From Escherichia coli (GTDB lineage Bacteria > Pseudomonadota > Gammaproteobacteria > Enterobacterales > Enterobacteriaceae): a DNA stretch of 64,000 nucleotides. The position numbers were made by a program, and so were the translations under genes. Location: NCBI RefSeq assembly GCF_024700885.2, contig NZ_CP117016.1. One strand, 5' to 3'. Shown one piece after another: positions 1,449 through 20,171 of the stretch (position 1 is the stretch's first letter; every line of letters begins with the position of its first letter). The notes beneath the pieces are model-generated. The model saw nothing but the letters and a program-made list of their open reading frames with translations, had not been told where the DNA came from and searched no databases.

Positions 1449-2327
1449 TTACAGCAAACCGGCATGCTTAAGCGCCGCTCTGACCGTCTCACGACCACTG
1501 TCGGTGATAGGTGTCATTGGCAGGCGCAGCGTATCGGTCGCCACAAGACCCAGTTCCTTACATGCCCATTTCACAGGGATTGGATTGGGTTCGACAAATA
1601 GTTTGTTGTGTAATGGCATCAGACGCTGATTAATAACGCGTGCCTCGGCAAAATGCCCTTCTGCTGCCAGTTTGCACATCTGGGCCATATCACGCGCTGC
1701 GACGTTAGCCGTAACGGAAATAACCCCATGACCGCCTAATTGCATGAAGTCCAGCGCGCTCGCATCATCGCCGCTCAGCAGAACAAAATCATCTGAAACC
1801 AGCTCTTTGATCTGGTTTACACGCGTTAAGTTCCCTGTTGCCTCTTTGATTCCGATAATATTTTTTACTTTCGCCAGACGGCCCACCGTTTCCGGGAGCA
1901 GATCGCAGCCAGTACGGGACGGCACATTATACAGAATTTGCGGCAGGTCAGTATGTTCAGCGATGGCTTTGAAATGCTGATACAAACCTTCTTGCGACGG
2001 ACGATTGTAGTAAGGGGTTACCGTCAGGCAGCCGACGATACCACTGTCATTGAAGCGCTGCGTCAGGCTAATGGCTTCCGCAGTAGCGTTAGCGCCGGTT
2101 CCGGCAATCACCGGAATGCGCCCGTCAGCCAGCTCCAGCGTCATCATCACCACATCAGCATGTTCGTCATGATTTAAGGTAGCGGACTCGCCAGTGGTGC
2201 CAACAGAAACGATCGCCGAAGTACCGCTGGCGACATGATAATCAATCAGTTTTTTCAAGCTAGCCCGACAGACATTACCTTTTTCATCCATCGGAGTAAC
2301 AATCGCGACAATACTTCCCGTGAACAT
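1449..2327 (-). CDS. dapA: 4-hydroxy-tetrahydrodipicolinate synthase DapA
   Basis: Translation [47 protein letters not shown]...; start at internal ATG of the ORF. Confidence 0.93.
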
Positions 2328-2472
2328 GGGCCATCCTCTGTGCAAACAAGTGTCTCAATGGTACGTTTGGTATGGCATTAAAAGCAAGCAGACAGAACCG
2401 TTCTGATTGTTGTATGCATGTTTTTTTTATGCTTTCCTTAAGAACAACTCACCCCTTAAAGGAATAACCAGT

Positions 2473-3045
2473 TTGACACTGTCATCGCAACATTATCTGG
2501 TGATCACTGCGTTGGGTGCCGATCGCCCTGGAATTGTGAACACCATCACCCGTCATGTCAGTAGTTGCGGCTGTAATATTGAAGACAGTCGCCTGGCGAT
2601 GCTGGGAGAAGAGTTCACGTTTATTATGCTGCTTTCCGGTTCATGGAATGCCATTACTCTGATTGAATCAACGTTACCGTTGAAAGGTGCCGAGCTGGAT
2701 CTTTTAATCGTGATGAAGCGCACGACGGCGCGTCCGCGTCCGCCAATGCCAGCATCTGTCTGGGTTCAGGTCGATGTGGCAGACTCCCCGCATTTAATTG
2801 AACGCTTCACAGCACTTTTCGACGCGCATCATATGAACATTGCGGAGCTGGTGTCGCGCACGCAACCTGCTGAAAATGAACGGGCTGCGCAGTTGCATAT
2901 TCAGATAACCGCCCACAGCCCCGCATCTGCGGACGCAGCAAATATTGAGCAAGCATTCAAAGCCCTATGTACAGAACTCAATGCACAAGGCAGTATTAAC
3001 GTCGTCAATTATTCCCAACATGATGAACAGGATGGAGTTAAGTAA
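2473..3045 (+). CDS. gcvR: Glycine cleavage system transcriptional repressor GcvR
   Basis: Translation (M)TLSSQHYLVITALGADRPGIVNTITRHV...; TTG start at 2473 gives 190 aa as I recall for GcvR. Confidence 0.85.
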   Translation: MTLSSQHYLVITALGADRPGIVNTITRHVSSCGCNIEDSRLAMLGEEFTFIMLLSGSWNAITLIESTLPLKGAELDLLIVMKRTTARPRPPMPASVWVQVDVADSPHLIERFTALFDAHHMNIAELVSRTQPAENERAAQLHIQITAHSPASADAANIEQAFKALCTELNAQGSINVVNYSQHDEQDGVK

Positions 3046-3515
3046 TGAATCCACTGAAAGCCGGTGATATCGCACCGAAATTTAGCTTGCCGGATCAAGA
3101 CGGAGAACAAGTTAATTTGACCGACTTCCAGGGACAGCGTGTTCTGGTTTATTTCTACCCGAAAGCCATGACCCCCGGCTGTACCGTACAGGCCTGCGGC
3201 TTACGCGATAACATGGATGAGTTGAAAAAAGCGGGCGTTGATGTGCTGGGTATCAGCACCGATAAACCCGAAAAACTCTCCCGTTTTGCGGAAAAAGAGC
3301 TGCTTAACTTTACGCTCCTGTCTGATGAGGACCACCAGGTGTGCGAACAATTCGGCGTCTGGGGTGAAAAGTCCTTCATGGGCAAAACCTACGATGGTAT
3401 TCATCGCATCAGCTTCCTGATTGACGCTGATGGCAAAATCGAACATGTCTTTGACGATTTCAAAACCAGCAATCACCACGACGTTGTGCTGAACTGGCTG
3501 AAAGAACACGCCTGA
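3045..3515 (+). CDS. bcp: Thiol peroxidase / peroxiredoxin Bcp
   Basis: Translation MNPLKAGDIAPKFSLPDQDGEQVNLTDFQGQRVLVYFYPKAMTPGCT... with peroxiredoxin PGCT motif. Confidence 0.93.
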   Translation: MNPLKAGDIAPKFSLPDQDGEQVNLTDFQGQRVLVYFYPKAMTPGCTVQACGLRDNMDELKKAGVDVLGISTDKPEKLSRFAEKELLNFTLLSDEDHQVCEQFGVWGEKSFMGKTYDGIHRISFLIDADGKIEHVFDDFKTSNHHDVVLNWLKEHA

Positions 3516-3709
3516 TTACTTTGCTCCATTCCGTGCTGGCTGCGCTTGCGGTCAGCACACCTCACTTCTCGTGATCAAGATCACATTCTCGCTTTCCCCT
3601 GCGACACGGGTGTCGAATTCATTTTTTACTGAACGTTAATGACCATCATTTTTGTACCATTCAGAATACAGTTAATTCATAACTTATTGAATACATTAAA
3701 TTAATCAGA

Positions 3710-3726
3710 CTGGTATCCTTTATGCA
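3710..3726 (+). promoter_or_regulatory. Putative sigma-54 (-24/-12) promoter of the hyf operon
   Basis: CTGGTATCCTTTATGCA: GG and GC separated by 10 nt as in TGGCAC-N5-TTGCA; 40 bp upstream of hyfA ATG. Confidence 0.5.
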
Positions 3727-3767
3727 ATATGAAATGCAATGTTTCATATCATTTTCAAGGAGCCGAC

Positions 3768-4385
3768 ATGAACCGCTTTGTGGTGGCCGAACCACTGTGG
3801 TGTACAGGATGTAATACCTGTCTCGCTGCCTGTTCGGACGTGCATAAAACGCAAGGTTTACAGCAACACCCGCGCCTGGCCCTGGCGAAGACGTCAACAC
3901 TCACTGCCCCTGTCGTGTGTCATCACTGTGAGGAAGCCCCTTGCCTGCAGGTCTGCCCGGTCAATGCCATCTCCCAGAGGGATGATGCGATCCAACTCAA
4001 CGAAAGCCTCTGTATTGGCTGCAAGCTTTGTGCCGTGGTCTGCCCATTTGGCGCAATCAGCGCTTCAGGAAGCCGTCCGGTGAATGCCCCTGCGCAATAT
4101 GTTTTTCAGGCTGAGGGCTCACTCAAAGACGGCGAAGAAAACGCGCCGACCCAACATGCTTTGCTGCGCTGGGAACCGGGTGTCCAGACCGTCGCGGTGA
4201 AATGCGACCTGTGTGATTTCTTGCCAGAAGGTCCGGCCTGCGTTCGCGCTTGCCCGAATCAGGCGTTACGGCTGATCACCGACGATAGCCTGCAACGTCA
4301 GATGAAAGAAAAACAGCGCATTGCCGCAAGCTGGTTTGCCAATGGCGGGGAGGATCCCCTTTCCCTCACTCAGGAGCAACGCTAA
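3768..4385 (+). CDS. hyfA: Hydrogenase-4 component A, 4Fe-4S ferredoxin-type
   Basis: Translation MNRFVVAEPLWCTGCNTCLAACSDVH... with multiple CxxCxxCxxxCP motifs. Confidence 0.9.
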   Translation: MNRFVVAEPLWCTGCNTCLAACSDVHKTQGLQQHPRLALAKTSTLTAPVVCHHCEEAPCLQVCPVNAISQRDDAIQLNESLCIGCKLCAVVCPFGAISASGSRPVNAPAQYVFQAEGSLKDGEENAPTQHALLRWEPGVQTVAVKCDLCDFLPEGPACVRACPNQALRLITDDSLQRQMKEKQRIAASWFANGGEDPLSLTQEQR

Positions 4386-6403
4386 TGGATGCCCTGCAAT
4401 TATTAACCTGGTCACTGATCCTCTATCTGTTTGCCAGTCTGGCTTCGCTGTTTTTACTCGGTCTGGACAGACTGGCTATTAAGCTTTCCGGCATCACATC
4501 GCTGGTGGGTGGCGTGATTGGCATCATCAGCGGAATTACGCAATTACATGCAGGCGTAACTTTAGTCGCCCGTTTTGCCACGCCTTTTGACTTTGCCGAT
4601 TTAACACTGCGAATGGATAGCCTCTCGGCATTTATGGTGATGGTTATCTCCTTGCTGGTGGTGGTTTGTTCGCTCTATTCATTGACTTATATGCGCGAAT
4701 ACGAGGGTAAAGGCGCGGCGGCGATGGGCTTCTTTATGAATCTTTTCATCGCATCGATGGTTGCCCTGCTGGTGATGGACAACGCTTTTTGGTTCATCGT
4801 GCTGTTTGAAATGATGTCGCTGTCTTCCTGGTTTCTGGTCATTGCCAGGCAGGATAAAACGTCGATCAACGCTGGCATGCTCTACTTTTTTATCGCCCAC
4901 GCCGGATCGGTGCTGATTATGATCGCCTTCTTGCTGATGGGGCGCGAAAGCGGCAGCCTCGATTTTGCCAGTTTCCGCACGCTTTCACTTTCTCCGGGGC
5001 TGGCGTCGGCGGTGTTCCTGCTGGCCTTTTTCGGTTTTGGCGCGAAAGCCGGGATGATGCCGTTGCACAGCTGGTTGCCACGCGCTCACCCTGCCGCACC
5101 ATCGCACGCTTCGGCGTTGATGTCTGGCGTAATGGTCAAAATCGGTATTTTCGGCATCCTGAAAGTAGCGATGGATCTGCTGGCGCAAACGGGTTTGCCG
5201 CTGTGGTGGGGCATTCTGGTGATGGCGATCGGCGCAATCTCCGCGCTCCTGGGCGTGCTGTATGCGCTGGCGGAACAGGATATCAAACGGCTGCTGGCCT
5301 GGAGTACCGTCGAAAACGTCGGCATTATTTTGCTGGCGGTCGGTGTGGCGATGGTCGGTCTGTCACTGCACGACCCGCTGCTCACCGTTGTTGGACTGCT
5401 CGGCGCGCTGTTTCATCTGCTCAACCATGCGCTGTTCAAAGGGCTGCTGTTTCTCGGCGCGGGTGCGATTATTTCGCGTTTGCATACCCACGACATGGAA
5501 AAAATGGGGGCACTGGCGAAACGTATGCCGTGGACAGCCGCAGCATGCCTGATTGGTTGCCTCGCGATATCAGCCATTCCTCCGCTGAATGGTTTTATCA
5601 GCGAATGGTACACCTGGCAGTCGCTGTTCTCACTAAGTCGTGTGGAAGCCGTAGCGCTACAACTTGCGGGTCCTATTGCTATGGTGATGCTGGCAGTCAC
5701 TGGTGGGCTGGCAGTAATGTGCTTCGTCAAAATGTACGGTATTACTTTCTGTGGAGCGCCGCGCAGTACACACGCTGAAGAGGCACAGGAAGTGCCAAAT
5801 ACGATGATCGTCGCCATGCTACTGCTCGCGGCACTCTGCGTATTCATTGCGCTTAGTGCCAGTTGGCTGGCACCGAAGATAATGCACATTGCCCATGCGT
5901 TTACCAATACCCTTCCCGTCACTGTCGCCAGCGGAATAGCACTTGTACCCGGCACGTTTCATACACGGGTCACTCCCTCATTACTGTTGCTGTTACTACT
6001 GGCGATGCCTTTGCTGCCTGGCCTTTACTGGCTGTGGTGTCGTTCGCGCCGCGCAGCGTTTCGTCGCACTGGAGATGCCTGGGCATGCGGCTACGGCTGG
6101 GAACATGCGATGGCCCCGTCAGGCAATGGCGTGATGCAGCCGCTGCGTGTGGTCTTTTGTGCGCTATTTCGTCTACGACAACAGCTCGACCCTACGCTGA
6201 GGCTAAATAAAGGTCTTGCGCATGTCACCGCCAGGGCTCAGAGCACAGAACCCTTCTGGGATGAGCGGGTGATCCGCCCCATCGTGAGCGCCACCCAACG
6301 GCTGGCCAAAGAAATACAGCATCTGCAAAGCGGCGACTTTCGTCTCTATTGCCTGTATGTGGTCGCCGCACTGGTTGTGCTGCTAATCGCTATTGCCGTC
6401 TAA
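4385..6403 (+). CDS. hyfB: Hydrogenase-4 component B, NuoL/antiporter-like membrane subunit
   Basis: 672-aa polytopic membrane protein with WLPRAHPAAPS motif; start overlaps hyfA stop. Confidence 0.9.
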   Translation: MDALQLLTWSLILYLFASLASLFLLGLDRLAIKLSGITSLVGGVIGIISGITQLHAGVTLVARFATPFDFADLTLRMDSLSAFMVMVISLLVVVCSLYSLTYMREYEGKGAAAMGFFMNLFIASMVALLVMDNAFWFIVLFEMMSLSSWFLVIARQDKTSINAGMLYFFIAHAGSVLIMIAFLLMGRESGSLDFASFRTLSLSPGLASAVFLLAFFGFGAKAGMMPLHSWLPRAHPAAPSHASALMSGVMVKIGIFGILKVAMDLLAQTGLPLWWGILVMAIGAISALLGVLYALAEQDIKRLLAWSTVENVGIILLAVGVAMVGLSLHDPLLTVVGLLGALFHLLNHALFKGLLFLGAGAIISRLHTHDMEKMGALAKRMPWTAAACLIGCLAISAIPPLNGFISEWYTWQSLFSLSRVEAVALQLAGPIAMVMLAVTGGLAVMCFVKMYGITFCGAPRSTHAEEAQEVPNTMIVAMLLLAALCVFIALSASWLAPKIMHIAHAFTNTLPVTVASGIALVPGTFHTRVTPSLLLLLLLAMPLLPGLYWLWCRSRRAAFRRTGDAWACGYGWEHAMAPSGNGVMQPLRVVFCALFRLRQQLDPTLRLNKGLAHVTARAQSTEPFWDERVIRPIVSATQRLAKEIQHLQSGDFRLYCLYVVAALVVLLIAIAV

Positions 6404-6413
6404 GGAAATCACC

Positions 6414-7361
6414 ATGAGACAAACTCTTTGCGACGGATATCTGGTCATTTTTGCGTTAGCACAGGCCGTGATTCTGCTGGTGCTAACCCCGCTTTTTACG
6501 GGGATTTCCCGGCAGATACGCGCGCGTATGCACTCCCGTCGCGGACCGGGGATCTGGCAGGATTATCGCGATATCCACAAACTGTTTAAACGCCAGGAAG
6601 TTGCGCCGACATCTTCAGGTCTGATGTTCCGCCTGATGCCGTGGGTATTAATCAGCAGCATGCTGGTGCTGGCGATGGCCCTACCACTATTTATTACTGT
6701 TTCCCCTTTTGCGGGCGGCGGCGATCTGATCACCCTTATCTATCTTCTTGCCCTGTTTCGTTTTTTCTTTGCTCTTTCCGGGCTAGATACCGGAAGCCCC
6801 TTTGCGGGAGTCGGTGCCAGTCGCGAGTTGACGCTCGGCATTCTGGTCGAACCCATGCTCATTCTCTCACTGCTGGTATTGGCGCTGATAGCGGATTCCA
6901 CGCATATCGAGATGATCAGCAATACGCTGGCGACGGGCTGGAACTCGCCGCTAACCACCGTACTGGCGTTACTGGCCTGTGGTTTTGCCTGCTTCATTGA
7001 GATGGGAAAAATTCCCTTTGATGTTGCTGAAGCAGAACAGGAATTACAGGAAGGCCCGCTGACCGAATATTCCGGTGCCGGGCTGGCGCTGGCGAAATGG
7101 GGGCTGGGGCTGAAACAGGTCGTGATGGCAGCACTGTTTGTGGCCCTGTTTCTGCCCTTTGGGCGCGCGCAAGAACTTTCTCTCGCCTGCCTGCTGACTT
7201 CACTTGTCGTTACGCTGCTCAAGGTTTTGCTGATTTTTGTACTGGCCTCAATCGCAGAAAACACGCTGGCACGCGGGCGTTTTTTACTCACTCACCATGT
7301 GACCTGGCTTGGTTTCAGCCTTGCTGCGCTTGCATGGGTCTTCTGGTTAACCGGTCTGTAA
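6414..7361 (+). CDS. hyfC: Hydrogenase-4 component C, NuoH-like membrane subunit
   Basis: Translation MRQTLCDGYLVIFALAQAV..., membrane protein in operon context. Confidence 0.88.
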   Translation: MRQTLCDGYLVIFALAQAVILLVLTPLFTGISRQIRARMHSRRGPGIWQDYRDIHKLFKRQEVAPTSSGLMFRLMPWVLISSMLVLAMALPLFITVSPFAGGGDLITLIYLLALFRFFFALSGLDTGSPFAGVGASRELTLGILVEPMLILSLLVLALIADSTHIEMISNTLATGWNSPLTTVLALLACGFACFIEMGKIPFDVAEAEQELQEGPLTEYSGAGLALAKWGLGLKQVVMAALFVALFLPFGRAQELSLACLLTSLVVTLLKVLLIFVLASIAENTLARGRFLLTHHVTWLGFSLAALAWVFWLTGL

Positions 7362-7377
7362 GGAGCACTGACGGAAT

Positions 7378-8817
7378 ATGGAAAATCTTGCTCTGACGAC
7401 GTTATTGCTGCCTTTTATCGGCGCACTGGTCGTTTCGTTTTCGCCACAACGTCGGGCCGCCGAATGGGGGGTTTTGTTCGCCGCGCTGACCACGCTGTGC
7501 ATGTTGTCACTGATCTCCGCGTTTTATCAGGCCGATAAAGTTGCCGTCACGTTGACGTTGGTCAACGTGGGGGATGTGGCGTTGTTTGGCCTGGTCATTG
7601 ATCGCGTGAGTACGCTGATTCTGTTTGTGGTGGTGTTCCTCGGTTTGCTGGTCACGATCTACTCCACGGGTTATCTGACGGATAAAAATCGCGAACACCC
7701 GCATAACGGCACGAATCGTTATTACGCATTTTTGCTGGTGTTTATCGGCGCGATGGCGGGACTGGTACTCTCCTCGACGCTGCTCGGTCAGTTGTTGTTT
7801 TTTGAAATTACGGGCGGCTGCTCCTGGGCGTTGATCAGTTATTACCAGAGCGATAAAGCGCAGCGTTCAGCACTAAAAGCGTTACTTATCACTCATATCG
7901 GTTCGCTGGGGTTGTATCTTGCCGCCGCCACGCTGTTTTTGCAGACCGGAACGTTTGCGCTTAGCGCGATGAGCGAGTTACACGGCGACGCACGTTATCT
8001 GGTTTATGGCGGCATCCTGTTTGCCGCGTGGGGGAAATCGGCCCAGCTACCGATGCAAGCGTGGCTACCGGATGCAATGGAAGCGCCAACACCGATCAGC
8101 GCCTATCTCCACGCCGCATCGATGGTGAAAGTGGGCGTTTACATTTTTGCCCGGGCCATTATCGACGGCGGCAATATCCCGCATGTGATTGGCGGCGTTG
8201 GCATGGTCATGGCACTGGTCACCATTCTTTACGGCTTCCTGATGTATTTGCCACAGCAGGATATGAAGCGGTTGCTGGCCTGGTCGACCATCACTCAACT
8301 TGGCTGGATGTTTTTCGGCTTGTCGCTCTCCATCTTCGGCTCGCGGCTGGCGCTGGAGGGCAGCATCGCCTACATCGTCAACCACGCGTTCGCTAAAAGC
8401 CTATTTTTCCTTGTAGCAGGTGCGCTGAGTTACAGCTGCGGCACGCGCTTGTTGCCGCGTCTGCGTGGCGTATTGCACACCCTGCCGTTGCCAGGCGTGG
8501 GTTTCTGCGTGGCAGCGCTGGCGATTACCGGCGTACCGCCGTTCAACGGCTTCTTCAGTAAATTCCCGCTGTTTGCTGCCGGTTTTGCGTTGTCAGTGGA
8601 GTACTGGATCCTGCTGCCCGCCATGATTCTGCTGATGATTGAATCGGTCGCCAGTTTCGCCTGGTTTATTCGCTGGTTTGGTCGCGTCGTGCCTGGCAAA
8701 CCGAGCGAGGCCGTCGCCGATGCCGCACCGCTGCCAGGATCAATGCGCCTGGTGTTGATTGTACTGATTGTGATGTCGCTGATTTCCAGCGTAATCGCCG
8801 CGACCTGGTTGCAGTAA
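7378..8817 (+). CDS. hyfD: Hydrogenase-4 component D, NuoM/N-like membrane subunit
   Basis: 479-aa membrane protein with WLPDAMEAPTPISAYLHAA motif. Confidence 0.88.
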   Translation: MENLALTTLLLPFIGALVVSFSPQRRAAEWGVLFAALTTLCMLSLISAFYQADKVAVTLTLVNVGDVALFGLVIDRVSTLILFVVVFLGLLVTIYSTGYLTDKNREHPHNGTNRYYAFLLVFIGAMAGLVLSSTLLGQLLFFEITGGCSWALISYYQSDKAQRSALKALLITHIGSLGLYLAAATLFLQTGTFALSAMSELHGDARYLVYGGILFAAWGKSAQLPMQAWLPDAMEAPTPISAYLHAASMVKVGVYIFARAIIDGGNIPHVIGGVGMVMALVTILYGFLMYLPQQDMKRLLAWSTITQLGWMFFGLSLSIFGSRLALEGSIAYIVNHAFAKSLFFLVAGALSYSCGTRLLPRLRGVLHTLPLPGVGFCVAALAITGVPPFNGFFSKFPLFAAGFALSVEYWILLPAMILLMIESVASFAWFIRWFGRVVPGKPSEAVADAAPLPGSMRLVLIVLIVMSLISSVIAATWLQ

Positions 8818-8828
8818 GGAGATGATGA

Positions 8829-9479
8829 ATGACCGGTTCTATGATCGTAAATAATCTGGCGGGACTGATGATGCTGACATCGCTGTTTGTGATTAGCGTC
8901 AAAAGCTATCGCCTGTCATGCGGATTTTACGCCTGCCAGTCGCTGGTGCTGGTGTCTATTTTCGCCACTCTCTCGTGCCTGTTCGCCGCAGAGCAACTGC
9001 TGATCTGGTCCGCCAGCGCCTTTATCACCAAAGTGCTGCTGGTACCGTTAATCATGACTTACGCTGCACGAAATATTCCCCAGAACATCCCGGAAAAAGC
9101 GTTATTCGGTCCGGCAATGATGACACTGCTCGCAGCATTAATTGTCCTGCTTTGCGCATTTGTCGTTCAGCCCGTGAAGCTACCGATGGCTACCGGGCTG
9201 AAACCGGCGCTGGCGGTGGCGTTAGGTCATTTTCTGCTTGGCCTGCTGTGCATTGTCAGCCAGCGCAATATCCTGCGGCAAATTTTTGGTTACTGCCTGA
9301 TGGAAAACGGCTCCCATCTGGTGCTGGCGCTTCTTGCCTGGCGTGCACCGGAACTTGTGGAAATTGGTATCGCTACCGATGCCATCTTCGCCGTCATTGT
9401 GATGGTGTTACTGGCAAGAAAAATATGGCGTACCCACGGCACGCTGGACGTGAATAACTTGACCGCGCTGAAGGGATAA
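8829..9479 (+). CDS. hyfE: Hydrogenase-4 component E, membrane subunit
   Basis: 216-aa hydrophobic protein in operon. Confidence 0.85.
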
Positions 9480-9483
9480 TGAG

Positions 9484-11064
9484 ATGAGTTATTCTGTGAT
9501 GTTCGCTTTACTCCTGCTCACGCCGCTGCTTTTTTCGCTGCTCTGTTTTGCCTGCCGGAAACGGGGGCACTCTGCGACTCGCACGGTGACAGTACTACAT
9601 GGCTTAGGGATCACACTGCTGCTGATTCTGGCACTGTGGGTGGTCCAAACTGCCGCTGATGCGGGAGAAATATTCGCTGCGGGACTGTGGCTTCACATTG
9701 ATGGTCTGGGCGGTTTGTTCCTCGCCATTCTTGGTGTGATTGGCTTTCTCACCGGTGTTTACTCGATTGGCTACATGCGTCATGAAGTGGCACACGGCGA
9801 GCTTTCACCCGTTACGCTGTGCGATTACTACGGTTTCTTCCATCTGTTTTTGTTCACCATGCTGCTGGTTGTTACCAGCAATAACCTGATTGTGATGTGG
9901 GCGGCAATCGAAGCCACCACCTTAAGCTCGGCGTTTCTGGTAGGCATTTACGGTCAGCGTTCATCGCTGGAAGCTGCATGGAAGTACATCATTATTTGTA
10001 CTGTTGGTGTCGCTTTTGGTCTGTTCGGTACCGTGCTGGTATACGCCAACGCCGCCAGCGTTATGCCGCAGGCAGAAATGGCGATATTCTGGAGCGAGGT
10101 TCTTAAGCAATCGTCCTTGCTTGACCCAACATTAATGCTGTTGGCCTTTGTGTTTGTGCTAATTGGCTTTGGCACCAAAACCGGGCTTTTTCCCATGCAC
10201 GCCTGGCTGCCGGATGCTCACAGTGAAGCGCCGAGTCCGGTCAGCGCCCTGCTCTCCGCCGTATTGCTGAACTGCGCGCTGTTGGTGCTTATTCGCTATT
10301 ACATCATTATTTGCCAGGCCATCGGCAGCGATTTCCCCAACCGGTTGTTGCTCATCTTCGGCATGTTGTCGGTTGCCGTGGCGGCATTTTTCATTCTGGT
10401 ACAGCGGGACATTAAGCGTCTGCTGGCGTACTCCAGCGTGGAGAACATGGGACTGGTCGCGGTGGCGTTAGGCATTGGCGGGCCGCTGGGAATTTTTGCC
10501 GCGCTGCTGCACACCTTAAACCACAGTCTGGCAAAAACGCTGTTGTTCTGCGGTTCCGGCAATGTACTGCTCAAGTACGGCACGCGCGATCTCAACGTCG
10601 TCTGTGGGATGCTCAAAATCATGCCATTTACCGCCGTGTTGTTTGGCGGCGGTGCGCTGGCGCTGGCCGGGATGCCGCCCTTCAACATTTTTCTTAGCGA
10701 ATTTATGACCGTTACCGCCGGACTGGCACGTAATCACCTGCTGATTATCGTCCTGCTGTTATTGCTGTTAACGCTGGTGCTGGCGGGCCTGGTACGGATG
10801 GCTGCGCGGGTGTTAATGGCGAAACCGCCGCAGGCCGTTAACCGGGGTGAACTTGGCTGGTTGACCACCTCGCCAATGGTGATTCTGCTGGTCATGATGC
10901 TGGCGATGGGAACGCATATTCCACAACCTGTCATCAGGATCCTGGCAGGCGCTTCCACTATAGTCCTCTCAGGGACGCACGACCTGCCTGCACAACGTAG
11001 CACCTGGCATGATTTTTTGCCTTCAGGCACCGCATCTGTTTCGGAGAAACACAGTGAACGTTAA
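9484..11064 (+). CDS. hyfF: Hydrogenase-4 component F, NuoN-like membrane subunit
   Basis: 526-aa membrane protein with [17 protein letters not shown] motif. Confidence 0.88.
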
Positions 11065-12769
11065 TTCATCGTCAAATCGTGGCGAAGCGATTCTCGCCGC
11101 CCTGAAAACGCAGTTCCCCGGCGCGGTGCTGGATGAAGAGCGACAAACGCCTGAACAGGTCACCATTACGGTGAAAATCAATCTGCTGCCTGACGTTGTG
11201 CATTATCTTTATTATCAACATGATGGCTGGCTTCCAGTCCTGTTTGGCAACGACGAGCGGACACTTAACGGTCATTACGCGGTTTATTATGCCCTTTCTA
11301 TGGAAGGGGCCGAAAAATGCTGGATCGTGGTGAAGGCACTGGTCGATGCCGACAGTCGGGAGTTTCCGTCAGTCACACCGCGCGTCCCTGCCGCGGTCTG
11401 GGGCGAGCGAGAAATTCGCGATATGTACGGGCTGATTCCGGTTGGCCTGCCGGATCAGCGTCGGCTGGTGTTGCCCGATGACTGGCCGGAAGATATGCAT
11501 CCGCTGCGCAAAGACGCGATGGATTATCGACTGCGCCCAGAACCGACGACTGATACCGAAACGTATCCGTTTATCAACGAGGGCAACAGCGATGCGCGGG
11601 TGATCCCTGTCGGCCCGCTGCATATCACCTCCGATGAACCGGGTCACTTCCGCTTGTTTGTGGATGGCGAGCAAATTGTCGATGCTGATTACCGTCTGTT
11701 TTATGTCCATCGCGGCATGGAGAAACTGGCAGAAACGCGGATGGGCTACAACGAAGTGACCTTCTTATCCGACCGCGTGTGTGGGATTTGCGGTTTTGCC
11801 CACAGTGTGGCCTATACCAACTCGGTTGAAAATGCACTGGGGATTGAGGTGCCGCAACGAGCGCATACTATTCGCTCGATTCTGCTGGAAGTCGAACGTC
11901 TGCACAGTCATTTGCTCAACCTTGGCCTCTCCTGCCATTTTGTTGGATTTGATACCGGCTTTATGCAATTTTTCCGCGTGCGGGAAAAGTCGATGACGAT
12001 GGCGGAATTGCTGACCGGGTCGCGTAAAACCTACGGTCTGAATCTGATTGGTGGTGTTCGCCGCGATATTCTCAAAGAGCAACGTCTGCAAACGCTGAAA
12101 CTGGTGCGCGAGATGCGCGCCGACGTGTCGGAGCTGGTAGAGATGCTGCTTGCCACGCCGAATATGGAACAACGCACTCAGGGCATTGGCATTCTCGACC
12201 GACAAATCGCCCGTGATTATAGCCCCGTAGGGCCGCTGATCCGCGGCAGTGGTTTTGCCCGTGATTTGCGCTTTGATCACCCCTACGCCGACTACGGCAA
12301 TATTCCCAAAACGCTGTTTACCTTTACCGGCGGCGATGTCTTCTCCCGCGTGATGGTCCGTGTCAAAGAGACGTTTGATTCGCTGGCAATGCTGGAATTT
12401 GCTCTCGACAACATGCCGGATACCCCACTGCTGACCGAAGGCTTTAGCTATAAACCTCACGCATTCGCGCTGGGCTTTGTTGAAGCGCCACGCGGTGAAG
12501 ACGTGCACTGGAGCATGCTCGGTGATAACCAAAAATTGTTCCGCTGGCGCTGTCGTGCCGCCACCTACGCCAACTGGCCAGTGCTGCGTTACATGCTGCG
12601 CGGCAATACCGTTTCTGACGCACCGCTAATTATCGGTAGCCTTGATCCCTGCTACTCCTGTACCGACCGTGTGACGCTGGTTGATGTGCGCAAGCGCCAG
12701 TCAAAAACCGTGCCGTATAAAGAGATCGAACGCTACGGCATTGATCGTAACCGTTCGCCGCTGAAGTAA
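11054..12769 (+). CDS. hyfG: Hydrogenase-4 large [NiFe] subunit
   Basis: NuoD/HycE-like; CGICGFAH N-terminal and [10 protein letters not shown]-terminal Ni-binding motifs; start assigned to GTG overlapping hyfF (start uncertain). Confidence 0.85.
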
Positions 12770-12778
12770 GGACAGAAG

Positions 12779-13324
12779 ATGCTGAAGTTACTGAAAACTA
12801 TTATGCGCGCCGGAACCGCGACGGTGAAATATCCCTTCGCGCCACTGGAGGTCAGCCCAGGCTTTCGCGGGAAACCGGACCTGATGCCCAGCCAATGTAT
12901 TGCCTGTGGTGCCTGCGCCTGTGCTTGTCCGGCAAATGCGCTGACTATCCAGACCGACGACCAGCAAAATTCGCGCACCTGGCAGCTCTATCTGGGGCGT
13001 TGTATTTACTGCGGACGTTGTGAAGAAGTGTGCCCGACCAGAGCCATTCAGCTTACCAATAACTTTGAACTGACCGTCACCAATAAAGCCGATCTCTATA
13101 CCCGCGCGACGTTCCATCTACAACGCTGCAGCCGTTGCGAACGCCCGTTTGCCCCGCAAAAAACCGTCGCACTGGCTGCAGAACTGTTGGCACAGCAACA
13201 AAATGCGCCACAAAACCGCGAAATGTTGCGGGCGCAAGCGAGCGTCTGCCCGGAATGCAAACAACACGCGACGCTGATTAACGACAACACAGATGTACCG
13301 CTGGTGGCTAAGGAGCAGGTATGA
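12779..13324 (+). CDS. hyfH: Hydrogenase-4 component H, 4Fe-4S ferredoxin-like
   Basis: [12 protein letters not shown] and [12 protein letters not shown] ferredoxin motifs. Confidence 0.88.
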
Positions 13325-14079
13325 GTCCAGTGCTTACGCAACATGTCAGCCAGCCCATCACGCTGGACGAGCAAACGCAAAAGATGAAGCTGCATTTGTT
13401 ACAGGATATCCGTCGCTCGGCTTACGTTTATCGCGTCGATTGCGGCGGCTGCAACGCCTGCGAAATCGAAATTTTTGCCGCCATCACACCCGTATTCGAC
13501 GCAGAACGTTTTGGCATTAAGGTTGTTTCATCACCGCGTCACGCCGATATTTTGTTATTTACTGGCGCAGTCACCCGGGCGATGCGTATGCCTGCACTTC
13601 GGGCGTATGAGTCTGCCCCCGATCATAAAATTTGTGTTTCCTACGGCGCGTGCGGTGTCGGCGGCGGTATTTTCCACGATCTTTACAGCGTCTGGGGCGG
13701 CAGCGACACCATTGTCCCCATTGATGTTTGGATCCCCGGCTGCCCGCCAACACCGGCCGCCACCATTCACGGTTTCGCCGTGGCGCTCGGTTTGCTGCAA
13801 CAGAAGATTCACGCGGTGGATTATCGCGATCCCACCGGGGTGACCATGCAACCGCTGTGGTCGCAGATCCCGCCATCACAGCGTATCGCCATTGAGCGAG
13901 AAGCGAGGCGGCTGGCGGGCTATCGTCAAGGGCGAGAAATTTGCGATCGACTCCTGCGCCATTTAAGCGACGATCCTACAGGAAATCGGGTTAACACCTG
14001 GTTGCGCGAAGCCGACGATCCGCGTCTCAATAGTATCGTTCAGCAACTCTTTCGCGTTCTCCGGGGGTTACATGGCTGA
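13321..14079 (+). CDS. hyfI: Hydrogenase-4 small subunit, NuoB-like
   Basis: Translation with CGGCNACE and GCPPTP motifs; 4-nt overlap with hyfH. Confidence 0.88.
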
Positions 14080-14485
14080 GGAGTGCGGGGAAATTGTTTT
14101 CTGGACGCTGCGAAAAAAATTTATCGCCAGTAGCGACGAGATGCCGGAACACAGCTCCCAGGTAATGTATTACTCGTTGGCTATCGGTCATCACGTTGGC
14201 GTGATTGATTGTCTGAATGTCGCCTTCCGCTGCCCACAGACGGAATACGAAGATTGGCTTGCACAGGTCGAAGAGGAGCAAGCCCGACGTAAGATGCTGG
14301 GGGTGATGACCTTTGGTGAGATTGTTATTGACGCCAGCCACACCGCCCTGTTGACCCGGGCATTCGCGCCACTGGCAGATGACGCGACGTCGGCGTGGCA
14401 GGCGCGTAGCATTCAATTCATTCATCTGTTGGATGAAATTGTGCAGGAACCGGCCATCTATCTGATGGCCAGAAAAATTGCGTGA
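14072..14485 (+). CDS. hyfJ: HycH-like hydrogenase maturation protein
   Basis: 137-aa ORF overlapping hyfI end; operon position. Confidence 0.8.
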
Positions 14486-14514
14486 GAAGGATTTCTCATT
14501 AATAAGGACTGTTG

Positions 14515-16527
14515 ATGGCTATGTCAGACGAGGCGATGTTTGCCCCGCCGCAAGGAATAACAATTGAAGCGGTAAACGGAATGCTCGCGGAGCGGTTAGC
14601 GCAGAAACACGGCAAGGCGTCTTTATTACGCGCCTTCATCCCGCTGCCGCCGCCGTTCAGCCCGGTACAACTTATTGAACTGCATGTTCTCAAAAGCAAC
14701 TTCTATTACCGCTACCATGATGATGGCAGCGATGTGACGGCAACAACAGAGTATCAGGGTGAGATGGTCGATTATTCGCGCCACGCAGTCCTTCTCGGCA
14801 GTAGTGGAATGGCGGAGCTACGCTTTATTCGCACCCACGGCAGTCGTTTTACTCCCCAGGATTGCACACTGTTTAACTGGCTGGCGCGGATAATCACCCC
14901 GGTTCTGCAATCATGGCTCAATGATGAAGAACAGCAGGTGGCGCTGCGTTTGCTGGAGAAAGATCGCGATCATCATCGGGTACTGGTGGATATCACTAAT
15001 GCAGTATTGTCACATCTTGATCTCGACGATCTGATCGCTGACGTCGCTCGTGAGATCCATCATTTTTTCGGTCTGGCTTCAGTCTGTATGGTACTGGGCG
15101 ATCATCGAAAGAACGAGAAGTTCAGCCTGTGGTGCAGCGATCTTTCTGCCTCACATTGTGCGTGTCTGCCACGCTGTATGCCTGGCGAAAGTGTATTGCT
15201 GACACAAACGCTACAAACCCGACAACCGACCTTGACGCACCGTGCAGACGATCTGTTTCTCTGGCAACGCGACCCGTTATTACACTTACTTGCATCTAAC
15301 GGCTGCGAATCTGCGCTCCTTATACCGCTCACCTTTGGCAACCATACACCGGGCGCATTGTTGCTGGCGCATACCTCTTCCACTCTCTTTAGTGAGGAAA
15401 ACTGCCAGCTACTACAACATATTGCCGATCGCATCGCTATTGCCGTTGGCAATGCCGATGCCTGGCGTAGCATGACCGATTTGCAGGAAAGCTTGCAGCA
15501 AGAAAACCACCAGCTTAGCGAGCAGCTCCTTTCGAATCTGGGCGTCGGTGACATTATCTATCAAAGCCAGGCAATGGAAGATTTGCTCCAGCAGGTAGAT
15601 ATTGTGGCGAAGAGCGACAGTACGGTGTTGATTTGTGGTGAAACCGGAACCGGCAAAGAGGTGATCGCCAGAGCGATCCATCAACTTAGCCCACGACGCG
15701 ACAAGCCACTGGTCAAAATCAACTGCGCTGCCATCCCCGCCAGTCTTCTGGAAAGTGAGTTATTCGGTCATGACAAAGGGGCATTTACTGGTGCGATTAA
15801 TACCCATCGTGGTCGTTTTGAAATTGCCGATGGCGGCACGTTGTTTCTCGATGAAATTGGCGATCTGCCGTTAGAACTTCAGCCTAAACTGCTGCGCGTA
15901 TTGCAGGAACGGGAGATTGAGCGTCTCGGCGGGAGTAGAACGATCCCGGTAAATGTCAGAGTCATTGCCGCCACCAACCGTGATTTGTGGCAAATGGTTG
16001 AAGATCGCCAGTTTCGCAGCGATCTCTTTTATCGCCTGAATGTCTTCCCACTGGAATTGCCCCCGCTACGCGACCGTCCGGAAGATATCCCTCTTTTAGC
16101 AAAACATTTCACGCAAAAAATGGCGCGCCATATGAATCGCGCAATTGACGCCATCCCGACCGAGGCGCTACGCCAGTTGATGTCGTGGGACTGGCCGGGC
16201 AACGTGCGCGAGCTGGAAAACGTGATTGAGCGAGCGGTACTACTGACTCGCGGTAACAGTCTGAATTTACATCTTAATGTCCGACAAAGCCGTTTACTGC
16301 CGACGCTAAATGAAGATTCAGCGCTTCGCAGTTCAATGGCGCAATTGCTGCACCCGACGACGCCAGAGAATGACGAAGAAGAACGTCAGCGCATTGTTCA
16401 GGTATTGCGAGAAACCAATGGCATTGTTGCCGGGCCCCGTGGCGCGGCGACGCGATTAGGGATGAAGCGCACCACGCTGCTGTCACGAATGCAGCGGCTG
16501 GGGATCTCGGTTCGCGAGGTGTTGTAA
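14515..16527 (+). CDS. hyfR: Sigma-54-dependent transcriptional activator HyfR
   Basis: AAA+ sigma-54 activator motifs GETGTGKE and [15 protein letters not shown] plus C-terminal HTH. Confidence 0.9.
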
Positions 16528-16548
16528 TCTGTTTTTGCAGGAGTATGC

Positions 16549-17397
16549 ATGAGAAACAAACTCTCTTTCGACTTGCAGTTGAGCGCCAGAAAAGCGGCAA
16601 TCGCTGAACGGATTGCCGCCCATAAAATTGCCCGCAGCAAAGTGTCGGTCTTTTTAATGGCGATGTCCGCAGGCGTGTTTATGGCGATCGGATTTACTTT
16701 TTACCTTACCGTTATCGCCGATGCCCCGTCTTCACAGGCATTAACCCATCTGGTGGGAGGCCTTTGCTTTACGCTCGGCTTTATTTTGCTGGCGGTTTGC
16801 GGCACCAGCCTGTTCACCTCGTCGGTAATGACGGTGATGGCAAAAAGTCGGGGCGTTATTAGCTGGCGAACATGGCTGATTAATGCACTTCTGGTGGCCT
16901 GCGGTAATCTGGCAGGTATTGCCTGTTTCAGTTTGTTAATCTGGTTTTCCGGGCTGGTGATGAGTGAAAACGCGATGTGGGGAGTCGCGGTTTTACACTG
17001 CGCCGAGGGCAAAATGCATCATACATTTACTGAATCAGTCAGCCTCGGCATTATGTGCAATCTGATGGTTTGTCTGGCGCTGTGGATGAGTTATTGCGGA
17101 CGTTCATTATGCGACAAAATCGTCGCCATGATTTTGCCCATCACCCTGTTTGTCGCCAGTGGCTTTGAGCACTGTATCGCCAATTTGTTTGTGATTCCGT
17201 TCGCCATTGCCATTCGCCATTTCGCCCCTACCTCCTTCTGGCAACTGGCGCACAGTAGCGCAGACCATTTTCCGGTACTGACGGTCAGCCATTTTATTAC
17301 CGCCAATCTGCTCCCGGTGATGCTGGGTAATATTATCGGCGGTGCAGTGCTGGTGAGTATTTGTTATCGGGCTATTTATTTACGTCAGGAACCCTAA
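16549..17397 (+). CDS. focB: Formate channel FocB (FNT family)
   Basis: 282-aa membrane protein with FNT-like sequence, directly downstream of hyfR. Confidence 0.88.
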   Translation: MRNKLSFDLQLSARKAAIAERIAAHKIARSKVSVFLMAMSAGVFMAIGFTFYLTVIADAPSSQALTHLVGGLCFTLGFILLAVCGTSLFTSSVMTVMAKSRGVISWRTWLINALLVACGNLAGIACFSLLIWFSGLVMSENAMWGVAVLHCAEGKMHHTFTESVSLGIMCNLMVCLALWMSYCGRSLCDKIVAMILPITLFVASGFEHCIANLFVIPFAIAIRHFAPTSFWQLAHSSADHFPVLTVSHFITANLLPVMLGNIIGGAVLVSICYRAIYLRQEP

Positions 17398-17401
17398 AAA
17401 T

Positions 17402-17429
17402 CAGCCCGGCGAAACAGTTCGTCGGGCTG
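17402..17429. terminator. Bidirectional rho-independent terminator between focB and yfgO
   Basis: Perfect hairpin CAGCCCG-N14-CGGGCTG between convergent genes. Confidence 0.6.
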
Positions 17430-17433
17430 AAGA

Positions 17434-18495
17434 TTATTCTTGCGCGATTTGCCCATCGGGCCAGGCGTGAATCACGGCTTTGATCAGCGTCGCCAATGGA
17501 ATGGCGAAGAATACGCCCCAGAATCCCCACAAACCACCGAAGATCACTACTGATAAAATAATGACCAGCGGATGCAGGTTAACCGCTTCGGAGAACAACA
17601 CAGGTACTAACAGGTTGCCGTCCAGCGCCTGAATAATCAGATACACCGCGAAGCAGCTCCAGAATTCCGTGCCAGCACCAAACTGGAATAGCGCCACGCC
17701 AACCACCGGAATGGTCACCACAAATGCACCAATGTACGGAATAAGTACCGAGAAGCCGACCAGCACCGCCAGCAGCAGCGAATAGTTCAGCCCGAAGAGT
17801 AAGAATCCCAGCCAGGTGGCAATCCCCACCACGATCATCTCCAGCACTTTGCCGCGGATATAGTTGGTGATTTGTTGATTCATCTCCTTCCACACCTGTC
17901 CTGCCAGTCCACGGTTACGTGGCAGCACCCGGCGAACGGCGCTCAGCATCTGCTCTTTGTCTTTCAGCAGGAAGAAGACCATCAATGGTACCAGCACCAG
18001 ATAGACGGCAATGGTCAGCAAACCGACCAGCGAGGCGAGGGAAATTTTCACCACCGAATCGCCCATGGTCAGCATCCGACTGCGCATATTTTCGGCCATT
18101 GCATCAATAATGCCCGCATCCATCAACGCCGGATAGCGGCGCGGCAACGTGGCGGCAAAGTCAGAAAGCTTATTGAGCATCCCCGGCATATCGCGAATTA
18201 AGTAGATGCCCTGCTGCCAGGCGATAGGCAATACCACGAACGCCATCAGTAGCAATATACCGACGAAAACCACCAATACAATCGACGTCGCCCAGCGGCG
18301 GGAGCAGCCAATAGATTGCAGGCGCACGGTTGGCCATTCCAGCAAATAGGCCAGCACAATAGCCACCAACAGTGGAGCAAGCAGGCCACTAAAGAAAAAG
18401 ATAATGCCAAATCCGGCAACTAAAATAACCAGCAAGGCAATCGCTTCCGGGTCGCTAAAACGGCGGCGATACCATTGCATCAACATTTCGAGCAT
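17434..18495 (-). CDS. yfgO: PerM/AI-2E family inner-membrane permease
   Basis: 353-aa polytopic membrane protein; K-12 gene order focB-yfgO-bepA. Confidence 0.85.
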   Translation of the reverse strand: MLEMLMQWYRRRFSDPEAIALLVILVAGFGIIFFFSGLLAPLLVAIVLAYLLEWPTVRLQSIGCSRRWATSIVLVVFVGILLLMAFVVLPIAWQQGIYLIRDMPGMLNKLSDFAATLPRRYPALMDAGIIDAMAENMRSRMLTMGDSVVKISLASLVGLLTIAVYLVLVPLMVFFLLKDKEQMLSAVRRVLPRNRGLAGQVWKEMNQQITNYIRGKVLEMIVVGIATWLGFLLFGLNYSLLLAVLVGFSVLIPYIGAFVVTIPVVGVALFQFGAGTEFWSCFAVYLIIQALDGNLLVPVLFSEAVNLHPLVIILSVVIFGGLWGFWGVFFAIPLATLIKAVIHAWPDGQIAQE

Positions 18496-18707
18496 AAAGA
18501 CCTTCCCTGAACCTCAAGAGCGGGATTGCGATCCGCAATTGTATCGAAATGTCACAAAAAAGACTTCGCTTTTTATGACGGATTCAGGAAACTGAAAAGT
18601 CATTTGAGTGGGCTAATCTTCGCCGTTACACTCAAAGGCGGCGCGGTGGGAACGATATTTCACAGTATCGGTCAAATGACTATCTTCAGAAATACAGGAT
18701 AGAGGTT

Positions 18708-20171
18708 ATGTTCAGGCAGTTGAAAAAAAACCTGGTTGCAACCCTCATTGCTGCCATGACCATTGGTCAGGTAGCCCCGGCGTTTGCCGATAGTGCAGAC
18801 ACCTTGCCGGATATGGGAACCTCCGCAGGAAGCACGCTTTCCATTGGTCAGGAAATGCAGATGGGCGACTATTATGTCCGCCAGCTACGCGGCAGCGCGC
18901 CGTTAATTAATGACCCGCTGTTAACGCAATATATTAATTCGCTGGGGATGCGTCTGGTTTCGCATGCCAATTCGGTTAAGACACCGTTTCATTTTTTTCT
19001 GATCAACAACGACGAAATTAACGCCTTTGCTTTCTTTGGCGGCAACGTGGTGCTGCACTCTGCCCTGTTCCGTTATTCCGATAACGAAAGTCAACTGGCT
19101 TCAGTTATGGCGCACGAAATCTCCCACGTCACCCAACGTCACCTGGCGCGAGCGATGGAAGATCAACAACGCAGCGCGCCGCTGACCTGGGTCGGCGCGT
19201 TAGGTTCTATTTTACTGGCGATGGCCAGTCCGCAGGCGGGGATGGCGGCGCTGACCGGTACACTGGCGGGAACGCGCCAGGGGATGATCAGTTTCACCCA
19301 GCAAAATGAACAGGAAGCGGACCGCATTGGTATTCAGGTGCTGCAACGCTCAGGATTCGATCCGCAGGCGATGCCGACCTTCCTCGAAAAATTGCTCGAT
19401 CAGGCGCGTTACTCCTCGCGTCCGCCGGAAATTTTATTGACTCACCCATTGCCGGAAAGTCGTCTGGCAGATGCCCGCAACCGTGCTAATCAGATGCGCC
19501 CGATGGTGGTGCAGTCGTCGGAAGATTTCTATCTGGCGAAAGCGCGCACACTGGGGATGTATAATTCCGGACGTAACCAGCTCACCAGTGATTTGCTGGA
19601 TGAATGGGCGAAAGGAAACGTTCGTCAGCAACGAGCGGCGCAATATGGTCGTGCTTTACAGGCGATGGAAGCCAATAAATACGACGAAGCGCGTAAAACG
19701 CTGCAACCGTTACTGGCGGCAGAACCTGGCAATGCATGGTATCTCGATCTGGCTACCGATATCGATCTTGGGCAAAACAAAGCCAATGACGCTATCAATC
19801 GCCTGAAAAATGCCCGCGATTTGCGCACCAATCCGGTGTTGCAGCTCAACCTGGCGAACGCTTATCTGCAAGGGGGGCAACCACAGGAAGCGGCCAATAT
19901 TCTGAATCGCTACACTTTTAACAATAAAGATGACAGCAACGGCTGGGATTTACTGGCACAGGCGGAAGCCGCACTAAATAACCGCGATCAGGAACTGGCT
20001 GCGCGAGCTGAAGGTTATGCGCTCGCCGGGCGACTCGATCAGGCCATTTCCTTGTTGAGTAGCGCCAGTTCGCAGGTGAAATTAGGCAGCCTGCAACAAG
20101 CGCGTTACGATGCGCGCATCGACCAGTTGCGCCAGCTGCAAGAACGCTTTAAGCCTTATACCAAGATGTAA
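18708..20171 (+). CDS. bepA: Periplasmic beta-barrel assembly-enhancing protease BepA (YfgC)
   Basis: Signal peptide, HEISH zinc-metalloprotease motif, TPR-like C-terminus. Confidence 0.9.

Follow-up and report, generated by a model that had tools for sequence, protein, structure and literature searches.

An uninterrupted hyf (hydrogenase 4) operon with a full-length hyfG in an Escherichia coli chromosome, and a derived in-frame deletion proposed for the K-12 allele

Formate hydrogenlyase-1 (FHL-1) of Escherichia coli contains two membrane subunits, whereas the hyf system contains five and adds an activator and a formate channel of its own. The product of hyf is hydrogenase 4 (Hyd-4), a complex I-related, group-4 membrane-bound [NiFe] hydrogenase that forms the core of a second complex, formate hydrogenlyase-2 (FHL-2). 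Here we describe the hyf operon found at positions 3711-17430 of a 64,000-nucleotide stretch of E. coli chromosome (contig NZ_CP117016.1), referred to below as the window, and compare it with the K-12 operon and with related systems. In Pectobacterium atrosepticum the cluster includes a protease gene, hyfK, and the organism is without hydrogenase 3 (Hyd-3), whereas in E. coli a protease gene is missing from the locus and hyc is present in addition; HycI is able to mature a Hyd-4 enzyme (PMC7654741). Native expression of hyf in K-12 has been described as poor in a paper whose references include one with 'a silent operon, hyf' as its title (PMC7384014). When Finney et al. (2020) swapped the K-12 hyf promoter for that of hyc or for T5 and grafted the HycE C-terminal peptide onto HyfG, no Hyd-4-dependent H2 was obtained, and it was concluded that 'additional, unknown, biosynthetic problems' remain (PMC7654741).

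We found that the window very probably carries a complete, uninterrupted copy of this known operon with an ancestral, full-length hyfG, and that K-12 carries a derived deletion in the same gene that would impair or abolish catalysis. Positions 3000-18000 of the window were 100% identical to E. coli strain MLI114 (NZ_CP117013.1) and essentially identical to about 20 other RefSeq genomes, and positions 2000-19000 were equal, base for base, to the RefSeq locus extracted for comparison. In MLI114, the Prokaryotic Genome Annotation Pipeline (PGAP) lists gcvR, bcp, hyfA-hyfJ, hyfR, focB, yfgO and bepA without any pseudogene flag. The genes hyfABCDEFGHIJR-focB occupy 3768-17397 in the K-12 gene order, between bcp and yfgO. 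A check of the open reading frames (ORFs) revealed that 12 of 12 were full length, with no internal stops and no frameshifts, and that 11 of the 12 proteins had exactly the K-12 length. The four overlaps, hyfA/B (1 nt), hyfF/G (11 nt), hyfH/I (4 nt) and hyfI/J (8 nt), were also identical to those of K-12. A preliminary description of this DNA had named the twelve genes, their expected overlaps and the HyfR activator, and each was borne out, the genes by the ORF check together with the annotation of the 100% identical genome and HyfR by its Walker A (GETGTGK), ESELFGH and GAFTGA motifs. The span proposed there, 3710-17397, fits as well, with its first base 1 nt before the -24/-12-like element described below and its last base closing the focB stop codon. 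The hyf operon itself is already known as a textbook locus, and no new annotation is needed.

The difference from K-12 became apparent when window 3400-17700 was aligned to MG1655 (b2481-b2492). The two sequences formed a single colinear alignment with 286 substitutions and one 48-bp in-frame indel in hyfG; DNA identity was 97.7-98.4%, and the proteins showed 57 amino-acid substitutions overall, with none in HyfD. The hyfG gene (11054-12769, + strand, GTG start) encodes a NuoC-NuoD-like [NiFe] large subunit (E = 1.8e-292 to HycE, 7Z0S chain E) of 571 residues in the window versus 555 in K-12. The segment that K-12 lacks, GCCCGTGATTATAGCCCCGTAGGGCCGCTGATCCGCGGCAGTGGTTTT (12209-12256, + strand), encodes HyfG 386-401. 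Its first bases are the left copy of a 10-bp direct repeat, GCCCGTGATT (12209-12218, + strand), and the right copy (12257-12266, + strand) follows directly after it; K-12 has a single copy where the window has two flanking ones, the pattern typically left when recombination between short direct repeats deletes what lies between them. The only other length difference, of 1 nt, was located in an A-run at the focB stop (17395-17400). Of the strains sampled below, the window and three relatives of it end focB with TAA, and the remaining 14, K-12 included, with TGA; FocB has 282 residues either way. The locus had been called intact and conventional, without frameshifts or insertions, in the expectation that alignment to MG1655 would be free of indels. 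All ORFs are indeed open and colinear with K-12, but the locus is not conventional by the K-12 standard given the 48-bp indel in hyfG, and the polarity is reversed, K-12 being the deleted form.

HyfG 386-401 pairs without a gap with ARDFSNVGPMVRASGH of HycE, and a wider stretch of 19 residues pairs with ARDFSNVGPMVRASGHARD (7Z0S chain E). The core of this region, GP..R.SG, was also aligned without a gap in Pyrococcus MbhL (6CFW) and Aquifex NuoCD (7Q5Y). Among the 120 best database clusters of HyfG homologues (>20 genera), the segment was kept wherever residues exist, with the exception of five sequences that have E. coli-type flanks; another sequence is truncated and does not reach into the region. 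In a separate alignment of 41 sequences (40 from other genera and the window), 10 of the 16 segment positions were invariant, namely A386, R387, D388, S390, V392, G393, P394, R397, S399 and G400. With the segment retained by homologues that are not of the E. coli/Shigella type, these comparisons indicate that the window allele is ancestral and that K-12 hyfG carries a derived 48-bp deletion. We found no mention of this deletion in the literature, including PMC7654741; older subscription work (Andrews 1997, Sargent 2016) lay outside the search, so an earlier report is possible. Within these 16 residues, the long alleles of strain 48 and E203449 both carry D388E and one of them also P391H; other genera show little or no variation at the two positions.

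The segment contains a residue with a proposed function. In HycE, R395 forms with H284 and E437 a putative route for protons that leads to R478 and D529, the canopy residues at the Ni-Fe site, and Steinhilper et al. (2022) describe this pathway as conserved in FHL, membrane-bound hydrogenase (MBH), soluble hydrogenases and complex I (PMC9474812). The numbering of HyfG equals that of HycE plus 2, as anchored by C533/C531, R480/R478 and D531/D529 in a C-terminal part that aligns without gaps (the solved HycE chain, 7Z0S, includes a 12-residue tag). With this offset HycE R395 corresponds to HyfG R397, the arginine of GPLIRGSG, which lies within the deleted segment. H286, E439, R397, R480 and D531 are all present in the window protein and all invariant in the 41 homologues; K-12 HyfG is without R397, and the other four are present in both alleles. 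Deletion between the two GCCCGTGATT copies would thus have removed 16 residues, among them the GPxxRxSG motif with the arginine equivalent to HycE Arg395, and we infer that it impairs or abolishes HyfG catalysis. The absence of Hyd-4 H2 from engineered K-12 is consistent with such a loss of function. Strains resembling the window would accordingly be the ones predicted to encode a potentially functional enzyme, and K-12 would not. The nickel-binding motifs of window HyfG (an RxCGxCxxxH type from residue 241 and DPCYSCTDR from residue 531) were found, as was a PRG motif, and the protein ends in a C-terminal extension of 32 residues after R539. Nickel motifs, GPxxRxSG and the pathway residues, together with NuoB-, NuoI- and NuoH-like subunits and antiporter-like subunits, place the window locus among the group 4 [NiFe] hydrogenases.

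Both forms of the gene are common. Across 5,426 complete E. coli genomes the hyfG region was matched in 4,294, leaving 1,132 (21%) without hyf. The long allele, counted by a match to the 48-bp hyfG segment (sensitive mode), was present in 2,179 genomes, and the K-12 deletion junction, counted with a 40-bp probe spanning it, in 2,115. The two counts sum to exactly 4,294, so that roughly every second genome with hyf has the deleted form of hyfG. In a genome without hyf, a spacer of 97 bp separates bcp from yfgO and holds no insertion, and homology to the window stops at ~3570 and resumes at ~17426, which delimits a presence/absence segment of ~13.85 kb (3571-17425, + strand). Touchon et al. (2009) listed hyfABCDEFGHIJ among the genes absent from phylogroup B2 strains (PMC2617782). 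Absence from the 1,132 genomes and from B2 strains means that hyf does not belong to the core genome. The region had been taken for ordinary core genome in the preliminary description, a view that also conflicts with the frequency of the deletion among carriers and with the frameshifts and stops found in many loci.

The state of the operon was examined in 18 strains including the window, drawn from evenly spaced rows of both allele match lists, plus MG1655. Trees built from the complete locus, and from parts of it, revealed three groups: a K-12/O111/enterotoxigenic E. coli (ETEC) clade (K-12, CFS3246, HKUOPY1, E203449, O111:H8, STEC307, NCCP15648, 31B19CPO012, OkiPb01713, ETEC1731 and LD91-1), an O157:H7 group, and a window group (the window, KY1497, 806883-9-2019 and 2020CK-00188). 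With midpoint rooting, the window hyf clade branches outside both the O157:H7 clade and the K-12/O111/ETEC clade. At least one lesion was present in 11 of 11 strains of the K-12/O111/ETEC clade, amounting to at least 14 independent disruptive events, whereas all seven strains outside that clade (four of the window group and three O157:H7, 7 of the 18 sampled) were lesion-free with 12 full-length ORFs. Seven strains had the 48-bp deletion of hyfG. Frameshifts of 1 bp affected hyfB, hyfD (three sites), hyfH, hyfI and focB, and nonsense codons were present in hyfB, hyfC, hyfD, hyfF and hyfR (two sites in hyfR). The most often broken gene was hyfD, which also showed deletions of 208 bp and 216 bp. 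In nine sampled loci, inactivation sites fell at window-equivalent positions 4975, 7466, 7748, 7811, 8039, 8135, 13026, 13668 and 17229. Identical lesions occurred in varying combinations, suggesting recombination within the hyf locus.

Sequencing error was rejected as the cause of the frameshifts at most sites, since these are not long homopolymers, have linked single-nucleotide polymorphisms and were seen again in strains sequenced independently; for the run of six G (G6) at 7466 some doubt is left. Synonymous divergence (dS) reached 0.075 in the intact groups versus 0.039 in the decaying clade, so that the contrast in lesions is not explained by less mutational opportunity in the intact groups. 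The idea that pseudogene flags divide short- from long-allele strains was dropped, as long-allele strains within the K-12 clade were also broken; the contrast is therefore one between clades and not strictly between alleles. In addition, a 6-bp in-frame deletion in hyfH (window-equivalent 12909-12914) was observed inside the first CxxCxxCxxxC motif in four strains, across both hyfG alleles.

The short alleles clustered together in the hyfG tree. Residue 321 (window 12014-12016), an invariant threonine in the window and the 40 homologues from other genera, is changed to isoleucine (T321I) in each of the 7 short alleles sampled. One long allele, that of LD91-1, also has Ile321, so that its haplotype looks like the background of the deletion. 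The simplest reading of these data would be a single deletion on an I321 background that later spread by descent and recombination. Furthermore, private changes at invariant residues of the beta1-beta2 loop (P196L, G197S and R200P) were found in three short alleles and in no long allele. Two database proteins of 740 residues proved to be read-through fusions of a short-allele HyfG to HyfH, in which the hyfG stop has turned into a Tyr codon.

A sigma-54-type -24/-12 element, TGGTATCCTTTATGCA (3711-3726, + strand), lies 42 nt upstream of the hyfA start with correct GG/GC spacing. It has 3 mismatches to the consensus, and at that level 219 matches occurred in the window versus 239 expected, which is no better than chance. 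The sigma-54 promoter that had been judged plausible is not supported by the pattern match on its own, and its credibility would derive from its position and from prior knowledge of the hyf promoter. Position 3714 is T in the window and C in 17 of 17 other sampled strains, including K-12; the change converts the -24 box from TGGCAT to TGGTAT and makes it less like TGGCAC, the consensus that was scanned for. A promoter/terminator scan of the region detected no sigma-70-like promoter site upstream of hyfA. Upstream of the promoter, a perfect inverted repeat, CGACACGGGTGTCG (CGACAC-GG-GTGTCG; 3602-3615), was also detected as a hairpin and was invariant in 18 of 18 sampled strains; it might be a candidate site for the activators FhlA or HyfR.

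Several points weigh against the reading that the window carries an intact, ancestral operon and K-12 an impaired derivative. The activity of the window operon is itself deduced from its sequence, and its promoter, of a kind for which poor native expression is on record (PMC7384014), could be weakened by the private C-to-T change in the -24 box. In the alternative that survives best, the window strain has an intact hyf sequence that is nevertheless silent, for example because its sigma-54 promoter is weak, and the intactness would then mean nothing physiologically. The poor native expression of hyf in K-12 (PMC7384014), the C-to-T change, the lack of a sigma-70-type promoter upstream of hyfA and the lack of a protease gene in the operon (PMC7654741) all speak for it. 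However, the four window-clade and three O157:H7 strains keep 12 full-length ORFs, with ratios of nonsynonymous to synonymous divergence (dN/dS) of 0.08-0.14 and a larger synonymous divergence than the decaying clade, and intact ORFs with such low ratios are hard to explain without selection for the product. A further argument against silence is that HycI can mature a Hyd-4 enzyme (PMC7654741). On balance we consider silence of the window locus unlikely, though a serious competitor.

The remaining contrary points concern the deletion. AlphaFold2 models of long and short HyfG, built from the 41-sequence alignment in each case, were unusable (mean predicted local distance difference test scores 66.9 and 65.9, with residues 383-400 of the long form below 50), and the models of both alleles are too poor to show a structural effect. 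Four long-allele strains of the K-12 clade carry other lesions, so relaxed selection may have preceded the deletion and not resulted from it. K-12 and CFS3246 have the 48-bp deletion as their only lesion. The median dN/dS was 0.153 in the lesion-bearing clade versus 0.118 elsewhere, a small difference that is not decisive; long-term neutral decay is not supported by so mild a shift, and either the erosion of hyf is recent or some constraint remains. In K-12, hyfG knock-out phenotypes have been reported from redox-electrode assays (PMC10758574), which argue that the short protein is not null. The otherwise lesion-free state of K-12 and CFS3246, the still low dN/dS of the short-allele clade (0.15) and the knock-out phenotypes would all suit a neutral length polymorphism, in which long and short hyfG are functionally equivalent and the window has one common allele of an ordinary operon; the deletion is, moreover, in frame, both forms are annotated as intact by PGAP, and the alleles are about equally frequent. 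Yet the deletion took out ten invariant positions along with the HycE R395 counterpart, engineered K-12 gives no Hyd-4 H2 (PMC7654741), and the short alleles gain changes at invariant catalytic-loop residues while their loci gain frameshifts. We judge functional equivalence of the two alleles to be distinctly improbable.

That the 48 bp are an insertion or local duplication in the window lineage, with the K-12 gene being normal, is hardly credible: K-12 is the reference annotation and a duplication could also leave a 10-bp direct repeat bounding the segment, but the 38 bp between the repeats are not copied from neighbouring sequence, the segment encodes a motif that HycE, MbhL and NuoCD have at the same place without a gap and that is present in all homologues outside the E. 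coli/Shigella type, 10 of its 16 residues are invariant, and the short alleles form one cluster, all with the derived T321I. A full-length ancestral hyfG in the window and a derived deletion in K-12 thus remain the reading that we favour.

The other genes of the operon are all on the + strand, and HyfB, D, E, F, H, I, J and FocB scored above curated NCBIfam cut-offs. Five membrane subunits are predicted, HyfB, C, D, E and F. Three are antiporter-like: HyfB (4385-6403, 672 residues; NF005086, 973 bits vs a cut-off of 667), HyfD (7378-8817, 479 residues; NF005097, 811 bits vs 430) and HyfF (9484-11064, 526 residues; NF005041, 1178 bits vs 951). HyfC (6414-7361, 315 residues) is a NuoH-like membrane anchor that matched NuoH models below their cut-offs, and HyfE (8829-9479, 216 residues; NF008556, 369 bits vs 136) is a further membrane subunit. 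The soluble arm would consist of HyfA, G, H and I. HyfA (3768-4385) is a ferredoxin-like electron-transfer subunit of 205 residues with 16 Cys; HyfH (12779-13324, 181 residues; NF006076, 362 bits vs 270) is a NuoI-like 2x[4Fe-4S] subunit with two CxxCxxCxxxC motifs; and HyfI (13321-14079, 252 residues; NF005012, 122 bits vs 116) is the NuoB-like small subunit. The predicted accessory products are a HycH-like maturation factor, a sigma-54 activator and a formate channel. The first, HyfJ (14072-14485, 137 residues), matched the HycH-family model NF011664 with 208 bits vs a cut-off of 145, and the last, FocB (16549-17397, 282 residues), matched NF007261 with 643 bits vs 499. HyfR (14515-16527, 670 residues) is a sigma-54-dependent activator that scored 639 bits against the FhlA model, below its cut-off of 830; the match spans FhlA positions 134-690, which fits an FhlA paralogue with a different N-terminus. 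A hairpin with a 13-bp stem and 8 GC pairs (17401-17430), lying between the convergent focB and yfgO genes, was the best-ranked terminator-like site of the region and is likely to be the operon terminator. An Rfam scan of 2400-19000 gave no match.

By analogy with the families of these proteins, HyfR or FhlA together with formate would activate the sigma-54 promoter. Formate dehydrogenase H would then supply electrons, which the Fe-S subunits would relay to HyfG for the reduction of protons to H2 at its Ni-Fe site, and the antiporter-like subunits may couple H2 formation to ion translocation.

Beyond the operon, the stretch 19000-43999 was covered to at least 80% in 276 genomes, most E. coli genomes matching only its first 14.5 kb (bepA to pdeF). 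In an identical RefSeq genome the same stretch holds a tail-fiber-domain gene and several hypothetical genes, and the part from ~33,555 onwards is suggested to be a strain-variable island or a prophage remnant.

Nearly all experimental work on E. coli Hyd-4 used K-12 derivatives, whose catalytic subunit is short of 16 conserved residues, and annotation pipelines leave the deletion unflagged because it is in frame. The case cautions against K-12 as the standard for what counts as 'intact'. If the deletion is inactivating, it would help to resolve the conflicting and negative results on Hyd-4 in K-12, and the question of a second formate hydrogenlyase in E. coli, possibly an energy-conserving one, would be best put to naturally intact strains such as the window lineage and O157:H7. 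A bolder proposal, which we put forward tentatively and with more doubt than confidence, is that the 48-bp deletion is a main reason why E. coli Hyd-4 stayed 'silent' despite promoter and maturation engineering, that lesion-free, full-length loci encode an active FHL-2, and that restoring the 48 bp in K-12 (probably with I321T) or importing the window operon would give Hyd-4-dependent H2. On that proposal hyf would also be under loss in the K-12/O111/ETEC clade, already lost in B2 and maintained in other lineages.

In comparison with known systems, the window operon agrees with hyf of K-12 MG1655 (b2481-b2492) in its 12 genes, their order, the bcp-yfgO site, the four overlaps and eleven protein lengths, and K-12 differs in its HyfG of 555 residues, I321, the TGGCAT -24 box and the TGA stop of focB. 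HycE, the large subunit of hydrogenase 3 in FHL-1 (7Z0S, 7Z0T), is a paralogue encoded in another operon, hyc; HyfG aligned with it over its full length, with gaps only at the tag and at one residue near HyfG 176, and the Ni-binding cysteines, the canopy residues and the H/E/R proton pathway are conserved between HycE and window HyfG. HyfG homologues of Pectobacterium and Brenneria were 75-81% identical, and in the hyf system of P. atrosepticum, an experimentally active FHL-2, the Hyf-type large subunit keeps the 16-residue segment.

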